The notes below the pieces were generated by a model. That model had not been told where the DNA came from. It ran no database searches and saw only the letters and a list, made by a program, of their open reading frames with translations. From an uncultured delta proteobacterium (GTDB lineage: Bacteria; Desulfobacterota; Binatia; UBA9968), in assembly GCA_963771465.1 (NCBI GenBank), contig CAVYTU010000013.1, forward strand, positions 64,001-128,000: a DNA stretch of 64,000 bases, written 5' to 3'. A program made the translations under genes and the position numbers. Below, in pieces: positions 35,670 through 43,356 of this stretch (the stretch's first letter is position 1; the number at the start of each line of letters is the position of its first letter).

Positions 35670-37358
35670 CTAATCAAGCCGAATCAGCAAACCCTCGTCC
35701 GGGCGCAGTTGGAAATCGCCTTGAACACGTTCGCCGGAGCGATCCAGGTGCGTTGATAATTCAATCGTTCCCTCGGAAGTATCCGTGTAGCGACGGAGCA
35801 CCTGCGGTTGGGAACCGAGGTTGAGAGCGATCAGAAATTCCCTCTCATCCGTCGACGTGCGCCGAATGTAGGCGAGCATGTCGCCCTCGGCTTCCAGTGG
35901 CTCGAAGCCGCCCACCTCCAGCGCGGGTTCTCCGCGACGCAGCTCAATGAGGCGACGATAGAGGGTTAGGATGGAGCGCGGATCGTTGCGTTCGGTGTCG
36001 ACGTTCACCTCATGGAAGTCCTCGGCGATTGGGAGCCATGGCTTTCCTGCGGTGAACCCCGAATTTTCCTCAGAACTCCACTGCATGGGCGTCCGTTCTG
36101 GATCTCGGCCCAGTCCCTTCCCGGGTACGTTCTTCTCGAAGGGATCCTGTACCCGCTCCGGCGGGATCGCTACATCGTGCATACCGATCTCGTCGCCGTA
36201 GTAGATCGTTGGCGTGCCGCGCAGTGTAAGTAGGAGCATTGCGGCGACTCTCGCCTGCGCTGGACCCACACGCGAGGCGATCCGATGCTGATCGTGGTTT
36301 CCCAGAACCCAATTGGGCCATGCACCCTTGGGCAGTGCCGTTTCGTATTCCGTGATGAGCCGCGCGAGATGACGCGCATCCCATTTGGCAAAGATGAGCT
36401 GGAAGTTGAAAGGTAGGTGCGTGCCGGTGAGATCGGTACCATAGTATTGAACCAATCGCTCCACCGGGAGATAGATCTCGCCGATGAGCACGCGCTCCTG
36501 GTATTCGTCGAAGAGCTGGCGCATCCGGGCAATAATGCTGTGCACCTCTGGCTGATCGGTGGTTTGGATTGGGATCAATGCCTCGTACGGGTCCATCCCT
36601 TCGTGCCAGCTTGGGTTGGAAGGGTTATCGCGGAAACGCTCGTCTTTTATAATGTGCCAGAGCACATCGACTCGAAAGCCGTCCACACCGCGTTCCAGCC
36701 AGAAGCGGAGCACGTCGAGCATGGCGATCAACACTTGGGGATTACGCCAGTTGAGGTCCGGCTGCTCCGGAAGAAACGCGTGATAGTAATATTGTCCGGT
36801 GGGTTCGTGATGCTCCCAAGCACTTCCGCCGAAGGCGGAGAGCCAATTATTGGGCGGGCGACCATCCGGAGCGGGATCGTACCATAGGTACCAGTCGCGT
36901 TTCGGGTTATGGCGCGATGATTTCGATTCGAGAAACCAGGGGTGCTGATTAGAACTATGATTGGGTACAAAGTCGAGGATCACTTTGAGCTTTCGCGCGT
37001 GCGCCTCACGGAGCAGGTCATCAAAATCACCGAGGTTGCCGAATAGCGAGTGGATACCGGTGTAGTCCGAGACGTCGTAACCGAAGTCCTTCATCGGCGA
37101 GGGATAGATCGGCGAGATCCAGATCGCTTCCACGCCAAGCCAGCGCAGGTAATCGAGCCGCGAGGTAATGCCAGGAAGGTCGCCGACGCCATCGCCGTTG
37201 CTGTCCATGAAGGAACGCGCGTACACCTCGTAGATTGCCCCGCGCTGCCACCAGGTGTAGGTCGGTGTGAGTCCAACATCACGCTCGGAGTGGCTCGTCG
37301 GCTCGATTGCGCGATCTTTCATCCCAGAAATTTTCCCGTTACTGAGATCTAACGTCAC
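35670..37358 (-). CDS. GH13 alpha-glucosidase / oligo-1,6-glucosidase
   Basis: WWQRGAIYEVY.RSF.DSNGDGVGDL, DFVPNHSS, GVDGFRVD, IGE, LGNHD motifs. Start may be at 37323 instead. Confidence 0.93.
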   Translation of the reverse strand: MTLDLSNGKISGMKDRAIEPTSHSERDVGLTPTYTWWQRGAIYEVYARSFMDSNGDGVGDLPGITSRLDYLRWLGVEAIWISPIYPSPMKDFGYDVSDYTGIHSLFGNLGDFDDLLREAHARKLKVILDFVPNHSSNQHPWFLESKSSRHNPKRDWYLWYDPAPDGRPPNNWLSAFGGSAWEHHEPTGQYYYHAFLPEQPDLNWRNPQVLIAMLDVLRFWLERGVDGFRVDVLWHIIKDERFRDNPSNPSWHEGMDPYEALIPIQTTDQPEVHSIIARMRQLFDEYQERVLIGEIYLPVERLVQYYGTDLTGTHLPFNFQLIFAKWDARHLARLITEYETALPKGAWPNWVLGNHDQHRIASRVGPAQARVAAMLLLTLRGTPTIYYGDEIGMHDVAIPPERVQDPFEKNVPGKGLGRDPERTPMQWSSEENSGFTAGKPWLPIAEDFHEVNVDTERNDPRSILTLYRRLIELRRGEPALEVGGFEPLEAEGDMLAYIRRTSTDEREFLIALNLGSQPQVLRRYTDTSEGTIELSTHLDRSGERVQGDFQLRPDEGLLIRLD

Positions 37359-39286
37359 GCACCCTCAGCCGGTGCCGGCAAGAGCGCGCATGCAGCATGA
37401 CCCGGAATTCGCCATCCCTCGTCCGTCTCCAACGGCGGAGTGCCGGTCCCGCCATAACTCGGGTGCTCGCTCGACCACAGCGTCTCCCATCGCCTTCCCT
37501 CCGGCGGGGCAAGCAGCGGCTCGGGCGCCGGAGAGCGATGCAGGTCACGGCCCAAGTTTACGATCAGGATTCGGTCGTTTCCACTGGCGGTGAAAAAGCG
37601 CAGGACGAATGCTTCCGGACCAAGCACCGCGCCATCCACTGACCCGGCGTGATGATGGCGAAATACGTCGTCATCCCGGCGTAGCCGCAAAAGGTCCCGA
37701 TGTAGCGCGTATACCTGGCCATGGCTCTGCCGTTCGCTAAGATCGAGCTTGCAGAGTTCGAAGATTTTGCGATCGTGTGGATCGGGGAGCAGTTGCTGCA
37801 CCTCGGCGGTAGCTAGACTTCGGAACTGTCTGACAAACTCGGCCCGTCCCTTTCGCACTTTGACGGCGAGATCCTGTTTATGGTCCGCAAAAAATAGGAA
37901 CGGGCTTGAGGCGGCGAACTCCTGTCCCATGAAGAGCATAGGTGTTTCAGGTGCAAGCAATAGCAACGCCGTAATCGCCCGGTACCGTCCCGGACTGGTG
38001 AGCAGATGAATGCGCGTGCCGGCGGCGGAGTTGGCGATCTGATCGTGGTTCTGGATGTAATTGACGAAGGCGGTGTGCGGAAGCCCGAACGTTGGGGTGC
38101 CACGCCGTTGGTTTTGCCATTGGTACCGCTGTCCCTGATAAAGGTAGCCCCACTTCACCGCGGAGACGAATTCTTGGGGCGTACCCAAGTAGTCGGTGTA
38201 ATAAGCCTCGTTTCGCCCGGTTAGCGCTACACCGGCAGTATGATGGAAGTCGTCGTTCCAGAGCGCATCCATACCATAGCCGTCCTTGTCGACTGAACGG
38301 ACGAGTTTGACGTCCTGAAGCTCATTTTCCGCGATGACGACGGTATCGCGTCCGCGCGCTGCCTCGCGCACGCGCCCGGTGATCTCCTTCAGAACATGCA
38401 CTGGGGAGGCGTCGAAGATCTGCTGGGTTGCATCCAGGCGAAGGCCATCGATGTGGAACTCATCGACCCAGTAGCCGGCGTTCGCGATGAAGAACTCCCG
38501 CACCGGTGCGCAATGCTCGCCGTCGAAATTGATCGGCTCACCCCATTCGTTTTCGTAGCGGTGGGTGAAGTAATATCCTGAAAATTCCTTTAGGTAAGCC
38601 GCGTCGGGACCTACGTGGTTATAGACAACGTCCAGAATCACTCCAAGTCCGGCCGCGTGTGCCCGGTCGACGAAGCGACGAAAATCATCCGGGGTGCCAT
38701 AGAGGCGGGTGGGCGCAAAGAGGTCCACGCCATCGTATCCCCAACCGAATTGGCCGGAAAAATCTGCCACGGGCATTATCTCCAGCAGGGTGATTCCGGC
38801 GGCGGCGAGTTCGCCCAGCTCTCGGGCGGCGGCATCCCAGCTCCCCTCGCGGGTAAACGTCCCGATATGCATTTCATAAATGACTTGCCCTTCAAGGCCG
38901 ACTCCGCGCCACGCATCGTCAGTCCAGCGAAATGCCTCCGCATCCACAACCTGCGAGGGACCGTGCGGACCCTCGGGTTGGAAGCGCGAGGCCGGGTCAG
39001 GGTACGCCTTGGCACCGTCGAGTCGGTATCGATAAAGCGTGCCTGCCGTCGCATCCGGTACAAGCCCAGAATAGTAGCCCGTACTCTCTTGTTCCAGTTC
39101 GTGAATCAGCGAATCTTTGCCAAGGCTGGCAGTTGCCATTCCGCCATCGAGCACGACCTCCACCCGCTTCCGGTGCGGCGCCCAGACGCGGAAGTGAACT
39201 CCCCCCGCACGGATGAGTTCAGCGCCAACGGGTAACCGCCGAGTTATTTGGCTGGATCTAGTTTCAGCGGCTTTTAGTATGGTCAT
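37355..39286 (-). CDS. treZ: Malto-oligosyltrehalose trehalohydrolase
   Basis: FRVWAP, PDPASRFQPEGPHGPS, YEMHIGTFT, WGYDGV, DVVYNH, GLRLDA, WNDDFHH, QNHDQ, LFMGQE. Confidence 0.92.
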   Translation of the reverse strand: MTILKAAETRSSQITRRLPVGAELIRAGGVHFRVWAPHRKRVEVVLDGGMATASLGKDSLIHELEQESTGYYSGLVPDATAGTLYRYRLDGAKAYPDPASRFQPEGPHGPSQVVDAEAFRWTDDAWRGVGLEGQVIYEMHIGTFTREGSWDAAARELGELAAAGITLLEIMPVADFSGQFGWGYDGVDLFAPTRLYGTPDDFRRFVDRAHAAGLGVILDVVYNHVGPDAAYLKEFSGYYFTHRYENEWGEPINFDGEHCAPVREFFIANAGYWVDEFHIDGLRLDATQQIFDASPVHVLKEITGRVREAARGRDTVVIAENELQDVKLVRSVDKDGYGMDALWNDDFHHTAGVALTGRNEAYYTDYLGTPQEFVSAVKWGYLYQGQRYQWQNQRRGTPTFGLPHTAFVNYIQNHDQIANSAAGTRIHLLTSPGRYRAITALLLLAPETPMLFMGQEFAASSPFLFFADHKQDLAVKVRKGRAEFVRQFRSLATAEVQQLLPDPHDRKIFELCKLDLSERQSHGQVYALHRDLLRLRRDDDVFRHHHAGSVDGAVLGPEAFVLRFFTASGNDRILIVNLGRDLHRSPAPEPLLAPPEGRRWETLWSSEHPSYGGTGTPPLETDEGWRIPGHAACALLPAPAEGA

Positions 39287-39432
39287 CAGATGTTCCTTTG
39301 ATGTGCTCGCGGAGAAAATGAAATTGCCGGCGCGTACGCTGATGCTTGCGACTTGTGCGCCCTTGCTCTGGTTTTCGGTGGCCAACCGTTTCGCAGAAAC
39401 AGGAAAAAACCGGAAACTGAAAAACAGCAGGT

Positions 39433-39552
39433 GGCGGCTTCGGCGTCATACGGCATGTCGCCGACTATAACGATTTTATCGAGAGCGTTCTCGCCAAGCT
39501 TACTGAGCGCAGGTTCGAAAATATCCGGGTGCGGCTTGGATTGTTTGACGTC
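39433..39552 (-). pseudogene. Fragment of a HAD-family hydrolase
   Basis: DVKQSKPHPDIFEPAL...VGDMPYDAEAA (HAD motifs III and IV) with no motif I/II in frame. Confidence 0.7.
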
Positions 39553-40194
39553 GGGGACAAAGCGTCGGCTTCGATCCGTGCGATTTTTTATGAGCTCACC
39601 AACGCACCTTTCCGGCAGGTCGTGAGAAGATTGACCATTGAACATGCTAGTGAGAGCATGAGAGTTCGCTATCATGCGCACTCTGCATGGCCGCATTGAC
39701 ATTCTTCCGCGCTACCGACGGGTCCAACATTGGCGCAAAAAGAGCTGCAAAAGATTTCGCCCTCTTTGTCAAAACCCTTGCCCTCTTGGATGATGCAATC
39801 ACAATCATCGTGTGCGCAATTCAGTTCTGCCATTGGCTATAACCTTCCTTTCAGGTGAATTGATGTAAAAGAGAGTAGCAACCCGAGTGCCAGTGGGCGA
39901 CAAAGAAAAACACTAATGACTAGTCGCGAATTTGAAGTTCACGCAGGATTTTCGCTATCACACAAGCGGAATTAAAAGTCCCGATTAGGAGTGATTTTTC
40001 CGACAGCAACATGCCGCTATTCAGCGGCCTCGCGCCCGTTCTAAAAGGCCGACCATTGCGAACGTTGGGCAAACCCATTTCGCGGAAGTAGGATCGCCAC
40101 GGCATCGGTCCAATACTGGACCCTCGCGTTTAGCCCGGCGTATACTCCGCTGGTACTATGGAAATTCGATTTGATGCGACAAGGAGGGAATCAC

Positions 40195-40866
40195 ATGCCT
40201 CAAGTATCTGCGGAATTGCGTTGGTTTTTGAATGCGACGAATGTGAACGATGTGGACGCGTTCGATCGGTGGTTCAAATCAGGAACCTTGTTGCCAGGGG
40301 GCGGCAAGAAGCCGCGCGAGGACGTGTATGCAGTCGATCCCTCCACCGACGAGCTTGGAGTGAAGAAACGCGAGGGCAAGTCGGGACTCGAGGTGAAAGC
40401 GTTGGTCGAACCAGGATTTTTTTCCGTTGAGTTCGGAACCCGAAACGCGACGGTTCAACTCTGGTCCAAGGTGACATCGAATATTCTGACGCTACCGGTT
40501 GGTGTGACAGCCAGGCGTACGACGCTGAAGACACGATGGCTCCGGATGTTCGACACCGCAACATCTGTTGCGACGGAGGTCAAACTTGGGGCGGGCTCGT
40601 TCGGAGAAGATCCCGCACAGGAGTCTCCGCCCAATTTCGGATGCAATGTGGAATGGACCTTCGTAGAGGTACCTGGCTTGGTCGCGAAGTGGTGGACATT
40701 TGGCCTAGAGGCTTCCGCATTTGAGCAAACTACTCCGGTTCACTCCCGTTTGGAGAATGGGATCCGAAGAACCCTGGCCGCAATGACGACTAATTTAGGG
40801 AACGCACCAATCCTGGGCGAAGCATGGTGTGAGCAGAGTTATCCGCAGTGGATTAGATCGTTATAG
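40195..40866 (+). CDS. Hypothetical protein, possibly CYTH-like fold
   Basis: AGGAGG RBS; SAELRWF, REDVY, LGVKKREG, LEVK, KTRWLR, CNVEWT, TFGLEA, SYPQW pattern. Confidence 0.7.
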   Translation: MPQVSAELRWFLNATNVNDVDAFDRWFKSGTLLPGGGKKPREDVYAVDPSTDELGVKKREGKSGLEVKALVEPGFFSVEFGTRNATVQLWSKVTSNILTLPVGVTARRTTLKTRWLRMFDTATSVATEVKLGAGSFGEDPAQESPPNFGCNVEWTFVEVPGLVAKWWTFGLEASAFEQTTPVHSRLENGIRRTLAAMTTNLGNAPILGEAWCEQSYPQWIRSL

Positions 40867-41235
40867 ATTCGCACCTCCGTGGTTCAAATCCCGTTAAGAG
40901 CATGGCGGCGCAGCTAAACGATGACTCGAAGGTCAGGTTTTCCCTGTCTGAACCCATTCGATCACCTTGACACGAATTTATCTGCGCGACTTTCAGCCGT
41001 ACTTATCGCCGAGACTAAAGCTGTTGTCGTGGTGGCCCTTTAATTTGCCGCGGCACGTTGCAGTAGTCGGTCGAACTGACGCGTCGACCAATTAAATAGC
41101 CAGCCGTAGAGTTAAGATTCGCAGAGGAGGATTATTTGTTAAATATTTTTAAAATATTCGATTCTTCAGAACTGTCGGTGTAACATAGTTTTAAGCCAGT
41201 ATAGTGCTTAGGCCGTGAAACGCAGGGAGGAATCT

Positions 41236-42255
41236 ATGCGTGACGGAAAGATCCAAGTCGGACTCATGGGGTTAGGCCAGATCGGCCGACACCTTTATCA
41301 GCTTGCGGCAGAAAGCGACGATATCGAGATCGTCGCGGTTGCCGACATCGGCAAGCCGGAAATTCTCCACTATCTCCTCAAGAGCGACAGTGCCGACGCA
41401 CCACAATGCGAACTCCAGGACAATTATCTGGTCAATGACAAGTTTCGCACCAGGATGTTGCAGATTGCCAAACCCGGGGACGTTCCGTGGGACGTTTTCG
41501 GGGTCGATTGCGTGATCGATGCCACCGGCCGATATCGCCGCCGTGAATATCTGGAAACCCACCTGCAAACCGGCGCAGGCCGGGTGATTCTCGCATCGCT
41601 TCCAGCAGAGCCCATCGATCGTGTGCTGGTTCCCGGCATCAACGAAGCCAGCGCGGTCCGTGGCGACAGATTGATTTCGGCAGGTTCGGCAACCACCAAC
41701 GCGCTTGCGCTGATTTTGTATTTTCTCGACGCGGCGCTGGGAGTCGACTACGCGTCGCTGACCACAGTCCATGCCTACAGCAGCGATCAATCTTTGCAAG
41801 ATTATGCCCACGAGGATTTTCGTCGGAGCCGGTCCGCCGCCCAGAACATTATCCCCAACAGTAATGAGTCGGCGCATTGGGTCGAATTGATATTGCCAAA
41901 ATTCGCCGGAAAGTTGAGCGGCTACGCCCTCAACGTGCCGGTGCAACGAGGATCGTTGTTGGATCTGACCTGCGTGATGCACGACAGCGGCGTGACCGTC
42001 GCGCAGGTGAACGACGCTATGCGCGCCGCGGCTAACGCTCATCCGGTGCTCATCGGTATCACCGATGATCCCATCGTTTCTTCCGATGTCATTGGCTGTC
42101 GGCAATCGTTGCTGTTTGATGCGCAAGCGACCCTCAAAGCAGGAAAAAACATCGTCAAGGTCTTGGCCTGGTACGAGAGTTTGGGTCATGCGTGCCGCGT
42201 GCTCGACGTGGTTCGGCGCTACGGTCAGCTCGATGGCGATGGAGGTGTCCAATGA
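41236..42255 (+). CDS. GAPDH-family protein lacking the catalytic cysteine
   Basis: GLMGLGQIGR, VIDATG, TTVHAY, NIIP, PIVSSDVIG; the active site reads SAGSATTNALA instead of SNASCTTNCLA. Confidence 0.9.
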   Translation: MRDGKIQVGLMGLGQIGRHLYQLAAESDDIEIVAVADIGKPEILHYLLKSDSADAPQCELQDNYLVNDKFRTRMLQIAKPGDVPWDVFGVDCVIDATGRYRRREYLETHLQTGAGRVILASLPAEPIDRVLVPGINEASAVRGDRLISAGSATTNALALILYFLDAALGVDYASLTTVHAYSSDQSLQDYAHEDFRRSRSAAQNIIPNSNESAHWVELILPKFAGKLSGYALNVPVQRGSLLDLTCVMHDSGVTVAQVNDAMRAAANAHPVLIGITDDPIVSSDVIGCRQSLLFDAQATLKAGKNIVKVLAWYESLGHACRVLDVVRRYGQLDGDGGVQ

Positions 42256-43253
42256 GAGTTGCCATTAACGGATTTGGCCGCATCGGCCGCACGGTATTTC
42301 GTATTCTCGACAAGCGTGGAGACGTCGAGGTGGTCGCGATTAACGATCTCTTTGACAATGAAGCGCTGCGCTACTTACTCCATTACGATACCGTCATGGG
42401 TCCGTTCGACGGCACCCTGCGGCTCGAAGGCGATGATTTGGTCACCCCTAATGGCCGAACGCGGATGGTGTGTGAAAGGGATCCGCTAAAACTGCCGTGG
42501 AAAGATCTAGACATCGATGTGGTAATCGAGTCGACCGGGATTTTCACCGCCAAGGAGCAATTGACCCAGCACCTGCGCGCTGGCGCCAAGCGGGTTGTGC
42601 TCACGGTGCCAGCCAAAGACGCCATCGACTACACGGTCGTCCTCGGCGTCAACGATGACGGGCTCAATCCCGAACATCGGATCATTTCCAACGCCAGCTG
42701 CACCACCAACTGTCTAGCGCCATTGGCGAAGGTCTTGCACAACTCTTTTGGCATCGTCGAGGGCGTCATCAACACGGTGCACGCCTACACCAACGACCAG
42801 CGTCTTGCCGACGTGCCGCACTCGGACTGGCGGCGTAGCCGCGCCGCGGCGGAAAATATCATTCCGACTTCGACCGGCGCCGCCAAAGCGGTCGGCATGG
42901 TATTGCCGCAATTGAAAGGCCGGCTGGACGGCATCGCCGCGCGCGTGCCGGTGCCCGACGGTTCGGTCGTCGACCTATTCGTCGAACTCGAGAAAAGCGT
43001 GACCGCTGACACTGTGCATGCCGAGATCCGCGCGGCCGCCGAATCCAAGCGCATGAAAGGCATTCTGCAATTCGTGGACGCCCCCGTGGTGTCCTCGGAT
43101 ATTATAGGAAACGCCCATTCCTCCATTTTCGACGCGGGATTTACCACGGTTACCGGTGGTAAGTATCTCAAGTGTCTCAGTTGGTACGACAACGAATGGG
43201 GTTACTCTAACCGCGTCTGCGATTTGCTGAGATTAATGGCAGGATGGCAATGA
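42252..43253 (+). CDS. gap: Type I glyceraldehyde-3-phosphate dehydrogenase
   Basis: INGFGRIGR, ESTG, SNASCTTNCLAP, TVHAYT, WYDNEWGYSNR; ATGA overlap with the upstream paralogue. Confidence 0.96.
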   Translation: MRVAINGFGRIGRTVFRILDKRGDVEVVAINDLFDNEALRYLLHYDTVMGPFDGTLRLEGDDLVTPNGRTRMVCERDPLKLPWKDLDIDVVIESTGIFTAKEQLTQHLRAGAKRVVLTVPAKDAIDYTVVLGVNDDGLNPEHRIISNASCTTNCLAPLAKVLHNSFGIVEGVINTVHAYTNDQRLADVPHSDWRRSRAAAENIIPTSTGAAKAVGMVLPQLKGRLDGIAARVPVPDGSVVDLFVELEKSVTADTVHAEIRAAAESKRMKGILQFVDAPVVSSDIIGNAHSSIFDAGFTTVTGGKYLKCLSWYDNEWGYSNRVCDLLRLMAGWQ

Positions 43254-43356
43254 CCCGCGATTGTTTGATTTCCATGTGTCGCTCCGGGGTTTTGCGGGTT
43301 AATTGTCATGCTAATCAAGTGTAGGAATCTCTTTCTCGCCTCAACCGTGAAACCTG

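Follow-up and report, generated by a model that had tools for sequence, protein, structure and literature searches.

A cysteine-less GAPDH paralogue encoded directly upstream of a canonical gap gene in Binatia and other bacterial lineages

A stretch of 64,000 nucleotides from an uncultured bacterium of the class Binatia (assembly GCA_963771465.1, contig CAVYTU010000013.1, positions 64,001 to 128,000), hereafter called the window, carries two adjacent genes of the glyceraldehyde-3-phosphate dehydrogenase (GAPDH) family, of which the first, gene A, lacks the catalytic cysteine and the second, gene B, encodes a canonical type I enzyme. The comparative analysis confirmed gene A as an intact, selected, Cys-less GAPDH paralogue predicted to be translationally coupled to the canonical gap. 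Its sequence places it in a well-supported clade of upstream paralogues, for which we use the informal name X, sister to the GAPDHs encoded by the partner genes B. In the reading that we hold with moderate confidence, proteins A and B would assemble into a mixed GAPDH-type oligomer containing an inactive X subunit.

The window sequence directly displays two full-length GAPDH open reading frames (ORFs) sharing an ATGA, and a ribosome-binding site precedes gene A, as the initial annotation had described (Table 1). The motifs that this annotation listed for A were all found exactly as stated, namely GLGQIGR, SAGSATTNALA, TVHAY, DFRRSRSAAQNIIP and WYESLGH, and B has the canonical GFGRIGR, SCTTNC and WYDNEWGY. 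The two proteins share 38% identity over 328 residues and both contain the Pfam domains Gp_dh_N and Gp_dh_C, with values in A of 3.2e-18 for PF00044 and 3.3e-41 for PF02800. Against the type I GAPDH profile TIGR01534, whose equivalog cut-off is 367.2, B reaches 426.7 bits and A 261 bits, so that A does not score as a type I GAPDH while possessing the fold and the domains of one. Nor can it be ranked with Epd, since it lacks the Cys and obtains 185 bits with TIGR01532 for a cut-off of 530.55. The AlphaFold model of A has a predicted local distance difference test score (pLDDT) of 87.9 and a predicted template modelling score (pTM) of 0.88, and its top Foldseek matches are GAPDH structures, with template modelling (TM) scores of 0.87-0.90. 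The best sequence match of A in the PDB is 1HDG (220 bits), and no natural Cys-less relative nearer to A than ordinary GAPDH was found in that database. In the monomer models of A and of B alike, the S-loop stands out as the one long stretch of low confidence; it was considered as a sign specific to A and rejected as generic, the confidence being equally low in the model of B. The S-loop builds the GAPDH tetramer core, and in both models its low confidence fits a segment held by inter-subunit contacts.

Cys149 is the thioacyl nucleophile of phosphorylating GAPDH. Ten columns were scored in the alignment (D32, C149, C153, H176, T179, R195, T208, G209, R231 and N313), following the residue numbering of the G. 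stearothermophilus enzyme, in which the equivalents of Arg195 and Arg231 are the phosphate-site arginines. Gene B displays the signature DCCHTRTGRN, with all ten sites intact, and gene A the signature DAAHSRNENS: both Cys149 and Cys153 are replaced by Ala, Arg231 by Asn, Thr208-Gly209 by Asn-Glu and Asn313 by Ser. Protein A retains the GxGxxG motif, Asp32, His176, the Arg195 equivalent and the S-loop; its phosphate-site arginine pair is incomplete, Arg195 being kept and Arg231 being Asn. For want of Cys149, such a protein cannot form the thioacyl intermediate, and its Ps phosphate site is broken by the replacement of Arg231.

The initial annotation had stated that its reading would be refuted by close homologues retaining the Cys, which would point to a private decay event, or by a pairing that is not conserved, and had called for a ratio of non-synonymous to synonymous substitution rates (dN/dS) well below 1. 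The results speak in its favour, and against a private decay, on each of these counts. In all 120 best homologues (77-91% identity) both cysteines are absent, position 149 being Ala or Gly and position 153 Ala. The pair was followed in 36 related close loci, from metagenome-assembled genomes (MAGs), most of which bear the label Candidatus Binatia or 'delta proteobacterium'. Gene B lies directly 3' of gene A in 35 of them, the contig of the other (L023) ending 79 nt after A, and the flanking genes are common to only six of the 36 loci, the pair itself being constant. A has an unbroken frame in the window and in 32 of 35 close loci. The exceptions are L033 and L034, where the frame is interrupted, and L020, where A reads through in frame into B; these three are long-read MAGs, in which errors are possible. 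Nei-Gojobori estimates on the window and 15 intact loci, restricted to the 77 pairwise comparisons out of 120 in which dS was <1.5, gave a median dN/dS of 0.10 for A and 0.065 for B, non-synonymous change in A being about 1.55 times that in B. With its catalytic residues lost and strong purifying selection kept, A is to be regarded, from its sequence, as a predicted pseudoenzyme. At one close locus (L026:9251-10009), a fragment 86% identical to residues 189-292 of B is found about 1.2 kb downstream of the pair and seems to be a partial copy of the canonical gene.

The pairing extends far beyond the close relatives. An exhaustive search of cluster representatives indicated that those nearest to A are also non-canonical at position 149, and scans with two of these representatives brought the collection to 196 loci in total. 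The hosts of X are MAGs labelled Binatia, Fidelibacterota/Marinimicrobia, Acidobacteriota, Actinomycetota, Eisenbacteria and Pseudomonadota. X is followed by a canonical GAPDH at 139 of the 196 loci, across these phyla, and the partner adjoins X in all 139 assessable cases; the only X for which no partner is visible are those that lie at the end of a contig (L023, L057, L095 and L155), and the remaining 52 loci are solo canonical GAPDHs that represent distant matches of the scans. Among the 135 pairs for which it was measured, the spacing is -4 in 92, -1 in 25 and 0 to +3 in 14. The recurrence of the same arrangement at 139 loci excludes a chance arrangement.

These relationships were placed in a phylogenetic context with a quick IQ-TREE reconstruction (LG+C20+F+G4, without bootstrap) of 101 rows comprising 35 X, 47 partner B and 19 solo sequences. 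All 35 X rows, including gene A of the window, form one clade with a Shimodaira-Hasegawa-like approximate likelihood ratio test (SH-aLRT) support of 99; an earlier quick tree, also without bootstrap, had recovered an X clade of 20 rows with support 99. X and partner B (82 rows) are split from the 19 solo GAPDHs with an SH-aLRT of 93. They constitute sister clades, and the branching order within X repeats that of the partners. This shared clade and mirrored branching indicate that the pair is an old tandem duplication inherited as a unit.

A comparison of 35 X, 47 B and 17 solo sequences showed which residues are under constraint in X. The glycine-rich NAD motif GxGRIGR is retained in X, as are Asp32, Ser148, Thr150 and His176, with Ser148 and Thr150 at least 90% conserved. 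The best-conserved block of X is the S-loop, HAYtsDQ.LaD..RrsRsA.eNIIP, and the strands VPv..GS.vDl and dPIVSSD are kept as well. The losses comprise Asn6, Asn31, Glu93, the active-site block SNASCTTNCLAP, Thr206, Gly209, Ala211, Arg231, Tyr311 and Glu314; position 231 is Asn in 80% of X, the TGAAKAV loop is degenerate across the 35 sequences, and positions 152, 153, 209, 211 and 213 are variable. The conserved residues specific to X and differing from B (G4, P118, A168, T171, D273, I275 and A293) are scattered, and in this comparison the lost active site is not replaced by any new conserved set of catalytic residues.

The absence of the cysteine, which the initial annotation had noted in the first copy, holds for gene A and its 120 closest homologues and does not extend to the whole clade. 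Cys149 is kept in 33 of 143 X, 31 of which are labelled Acidobacteriota, one carrying another label and one being unlabelled; in the other 110, position 149 is Ser (57), Ala (46), Asn (4), Thr (2) or Gly (1). His176 is kept in 142 of 145 upstream-type ORFs, and not one of the 143 X has both phosphate-site arginines. The Cys-less state needs at least three changes on the 101-row tree, and a single clade of all Cys-less X was rejected by the approximately unbiased (AU) test (delta lnL 56, p-AU 0.004), performed on a set of 42 rows under LG+G4, the tested group having been named after the tree was seen. Judged from these residues, all X are impaired at the substrate site and the nucleophile was dropped several times, as would be expected if the maintained role of X was already independent of catalysis. 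In the Acidobacteriota-labelled MAGs, the upstream ORFs of L120-L155, L160 and L172 keep Cys149 and His176 and have lost Gly209 together with one or both phosphate-site arginines, with signatures such as DCAHTRTNNN, DCCHTLTNRN or ECCHSRTNSN. These Cys-keeping proteins may represent intermediates between enzyme and pseudoenzyme.

Fused proteins were sought as Rosetta-stone evidence among longer ORFs, and none proved credible. P0273 and P0275 contain long out-of-frame stretches and are frameshift artefacts, P0276 carries an unrelated N-terminal part before a canonical GAPDH, and the remaining long ORFs correspond to other fusions, for example GAPDH-TIM. Two ORFs run in frame from X into B: at L020:5986-8004 both genes form one ORF of 672 aa, and in P0128 the end of X continues into the start of B; these ORFs reflect natural fusions or else indel errors. 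Separately, Zobellella possesses a very divergent second GAPDH-like gene (L196:936-2387 and L198:943-2394, both on the minus strand) with the signature VCAHTRTGRN, in which Asp32 is replaced by Val; it lies beside a gap with an Arg195 to Gly replacement and forms a long branch in the tree.

The pair also occurs in RNA libraries. Contigs assembled from a soil RNA library cover positions 41134-41552 (0 mismatches), 41523-42311 (4), 42334-42532 (0) and 43062-43300 of the window, and the contig at 41523-42311, 789 nt long with its 4 mismatches, is the one that bridges the A-B junction. Near-identical pieces of A are found in RNA libraries of two further studies. These data are assembled contigs in which DNA carry-over is possible, and they show neither a transcript start nor a single transcript. 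Apart from a few pieces within A at 0-1 mismatch, the low-share RNA runs X2, X4 and X5 gave mostly conserved-motif matches from other organisms, and they were not used to assess habitat or expression level. A scan for promoters and terminators gave counts equal to the shuffled expectation and nothing upstream of gene A.

The distribution of the pair around the window's genome was surveyed at two levels. Among 121 genomes of the class, each at least 80% complete and including the unpublished G083, X is restricted to the genus of the window (2 of 121) and is found in none of the 113 genomes outside the family, here called f1. Nearly all class genomes have one canonical GAPDH match of about 350 bits, and those without X show only that one; the B-type GAPDH is, like X, confined to family f1. 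Within this family, a sample of 90 genomes (including the unpublished G158, where X is present, and G137 and G140, where it was not found) contains X in at least 48, with a patchy distribution by genus: 25 of 31 genomes in g1, 8 of 8 in g84 and 1 of 12 in g3. The window's genome encodes a third, canonical solo GAPDH of the class-wide type outside the window (C7:11727-12740, minus strand; L200:4728-5738), convergent to genes for a D-xylulose-5-P/fructose-6-P phosphoketolase (C7:8866-11229) and an acetate kinase (C7:7583-8845); pgk-tpi is located elsewhere, on C17. The X-B pair is, as judged from these genomes, an accessory module confined to one family beside the class-wide solo gap. X and its partner gene are acquired, lost and moved together. 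In both the X and the B trees, the Binatia sequences nest among MAGs labelled Fidelibacterota and Pseudomonadota, and the simplest reading of this topology is that the two-gene cassette entered family f1 laterally and moves as a unit; an ancient presence followed by many losses is a possible alternative. Seven genomes of 95-99% completeness, six from family f2 (G029, G061, G069, G077, G085 and G093) and one from the window's genus (G053), gave no GAPDH match with the X-family profile at E<=1e-30, and their GAPDH may be of a different kind or highly divergent.

How could a GAPDH deprived of its active site be of use beside an intact one? In the reading that we favour, A and B would be made from one bicistronic, translationally coupled unit, and X would assemble with B into a mixed oligomer, probably X2B2, to which it would contribute its NAD-binding domain and S-loop for the tetramer core and no active site. 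X could then stabilise or activate B, tune its cofactor use or cooperativity, or regulate it. We infer the binding of A to B, its stoichiometry and the effect of X on B from co-inheritance, coupling and the pattern of conservation; the catalytic losses, selection, obligate pairing, mirrored trees, unit behaviour, RNA-library contigs and intact fold all point in this direction. Several observations weigh against it. The evidence is all of association, consisting of co-transcription, co-inheritance and conservation pattern, and identical traces would be expected from an X homo-oligomer that acts separately and needs no more than co-expression with gap. DNA may be present among the RNA-library contigs, which are no proof of a single A-B transcript, and the two in-frame X-B read-throughs, L020 and P0128, are possibly assembly errors. 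Since a solo GAPDH is present, B is not needed as housekeeping enzyme in the window's genome. Finally, Cys149 and His176 are both kept in 33 of the 143 X, and X may have begun as a functional enzyme with a changed specificity and not as a partner subunit.

Among the other explanations, the one in which X acts alone, as a homo-oligomer or monomer serving as an NAD(H)- or metabolite-binding sensor, a regulator or a moonlighting RNA or protein binder, gap being co-expressed only for matched levels, seems to us unlikely without being far-fetched. It would account for a dinucleotide-binding motif and an Asp32 that are conserved when the substrate site is not, and inactive GAPDH-like proteins with other roles do exist in eukaryotes, as described for a trypanosomatid flagellar protein (PMC4106842). 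Another GAPDH in the window's genome could moreover cover metabolism. It sits poorly with the finding that X adjoins a canonical partner in every one of the 139 assessable cases, with a -4 or -1 overlap in 117 of 135, with trees of X and B that mirror each other, and with the fact that the segment best conserved in X is the very loop that builds the tetramer core. We give a smaller chance to a transient association in which X would be an assembly factor, or an inhibitory regulator capping or disassembling B tetramers, instead of a stoichiometric structural subunit. The evidence of association serves this possibility as well as it serves the mixed oligomer, and the faster non-synonymous evolution of X relative to B (~1.5x) is what a regulator would be expected to display; however, near-universal overlap and translational coupling suggest roughly equimolar synthesis, and conservation of the full-length fold exceeds the needs of a capping factor.

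It is improbable, in our opinion, that X is an enzyme whose new chemistry dispenses with the thioacyl intermediate and which would use His176 and other retained residues, for instance in an NAD-dependent redox or phosphotransfer reaction on another sugar phosphate. The retention of His176 in 142 of 145 ORFs, of Ser148 and Thr150 at 90% or more, of the NAD motif and, in Acidobacteriota X, of Cys149 would suit such an activity. A position 149 that can be Ser, Ala, Cys, Asn, Thr or Gly, the variability at 152, 153, 209, 211 and 213, the scatter of X-specific residues that outline no new catalytic constellation and the lack of a complete arginine pair in any of the 143 X would not. As for A being a decaying duplicate without function, a pseudogene in the making, the loss of essential GAPDH residues and a score under the TIGR01534 cut-off are what such a gene would show. 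This idea retains hardly any credit and is rejected on the grounds of selection and conservation: the window and 32 of 35 close loci have an uninterrupted frame, dN/dS is 0.10, the clade spans several phyla with mirrored trees and the predicted fold is confident. Identities of 76-92% and dS values up to more than 1 exclude that the homologues are one recent clone.

Protein A can be compared with several known systems. It has the two Pfam domains, the length and the fold of type I GAPDH (GapA, EC 1.2.1.12, TIGR01534; 1HDG from Thermotoga maritima and 1GD1 from G. stearothermophilus), and differs from it by the absence of Cys149/Cys153, Arg231, Thr208-Gly209 and Asn313 and by a position always upstream of a real GAPDH. 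In the chloroplast GapA/GapB enzyme both subunits are catalytic, and GapB regulates through a C-terminal extension bearing a Cys pair. Like this A2B2 GAPDH of plants (PMC11025378), the X-B pair consists of two paralogues derived from duplication, one with a putative regulatory role; unlike it, A has no active site, its C-terminal tail of about 10 residues, QLDGDGGVQ, is devoid of Cys, and the X-B genes are bacterial, adjacent and translationally coupled. Closer to the mechanism proposed for A are the prozymes, dead paralogues kept by selection that control activity by forming hetero-oligomers with an active paralogue. The AdoMetDC prozyme and HisZ-HisG are such activator systems, and the cases named here are, except for HisZ, eukaryotic. 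The partnership suggested for A is modelled by analogy on partners such as the trypanosomatid deoxyhypusine synthase, a heterotetramer with a dead paralogue (PMC3663545). Prozymes belong to other enzyme families and their binding and activation have been demonstrated, whereas those of A and B are predictions. The flagellar GAPDH-like protein of trypanosomatids (PMC4106842) is predicted to be inactive, conserved in its lineage and possibly endowed with a retained cofactor site; it differs from A in being eukaryotic, structural in the flagellum, unpaired with an active GAPDH gene and read as the relic of a lost pathway. The matched passages of a 2025 review of the GapDH-like superfamily (PMC12041015) do not mention a protein of the X type. 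A full-text literature search, with subscription journals outside its coverage, retrieved no description of a bacterial Cys-less GAPDH partner and no published name for X. The conserved X-gap pair is apparently undescribed in print.

Table 1. Position of the gene pair and its associated signals in the window
Feature	Position	Strand	Remarks
A+T-rich leader upstream of gene A	41134..41235	+	covered by a soil RNA-library contig with no mismatch
GGGAGG, Shine-Dalgarno-like, gene A	41225..41230	+	5 nt before the ATG of A; from sequence
Gene A (X-type), 339 aa	41236..42255	+	ATG 41236, TGA 42253-42255; P0001
GGAGG of gene B	42241..42245	+	within the 3' end of A, 6 nt before the ATG of B; from sequence
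ATGA overlap, start codon of B on stop codon of A	42252..42255	+	translational coupling; -4 spacing
Gene B, canonical type I GAPDH, 333 aa	42252..43253	+	ATG 42252, stop 43251-43253; P0002

Other genes surround the pair in the window. An ORF of 231 aa upstream of it (40171-40866, plus strand) has no Pfam match and is not beside the pair in the 36 related loci. A short ORF on the minus strand (39286-39702) matches only the C-terminal part of a HAD hydrolase (profile ~130-190) and is possibly a truncated gene or one with a mis-set start. Two adjacent genes of the alpha-amylase family (35670-39385, minus strand), one of them with CBM48 and DUF3459, resemble by their domains a pair processing trehalose or maltooligosaccharides.

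A broader proposal, which we advance tentatively, is that GAPDH would be an obligate two-protein enzyme in several largely uncultured phyla, a dead NAD-binding paralogue filling half of the tetramer and determining how the live subunits behave in activity, cooperativity, cofactor use or oxidant tolerance. The X-gap cassette would be self-contained and transferable between phyla, as into one family beside a resident solo GAPDH, and X would first have turned into a structural or regulatory subunit and then have lost its catalytic Cys on three or more independent occasions. Annotation sources name X 'glyceraldehyde-3-phosphate dehydrogenase', and gap copy numbers are therefore inflated in metabolic reconstructions. 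The series leading from Cys-keeping to Cys-less X offers a ready path for studying the passage from enzyme subunit to pseudoenzyme. GAPDH is among the most intensively studied enzymes, and the bacterial form is regarded as a homotetramer; a dead-paralogue partner, if true, would give central carbon metabolism a further level of regulation or assembly in abundant uncultured groups, from MAGs labelled marine Fidelibacterota/Marinimicrobia to those of soil Binatia and Acidobacteriota, and X-B would represent a natural, hard-wired version of the classical half-of-the-sites behaviour of GAPDH.

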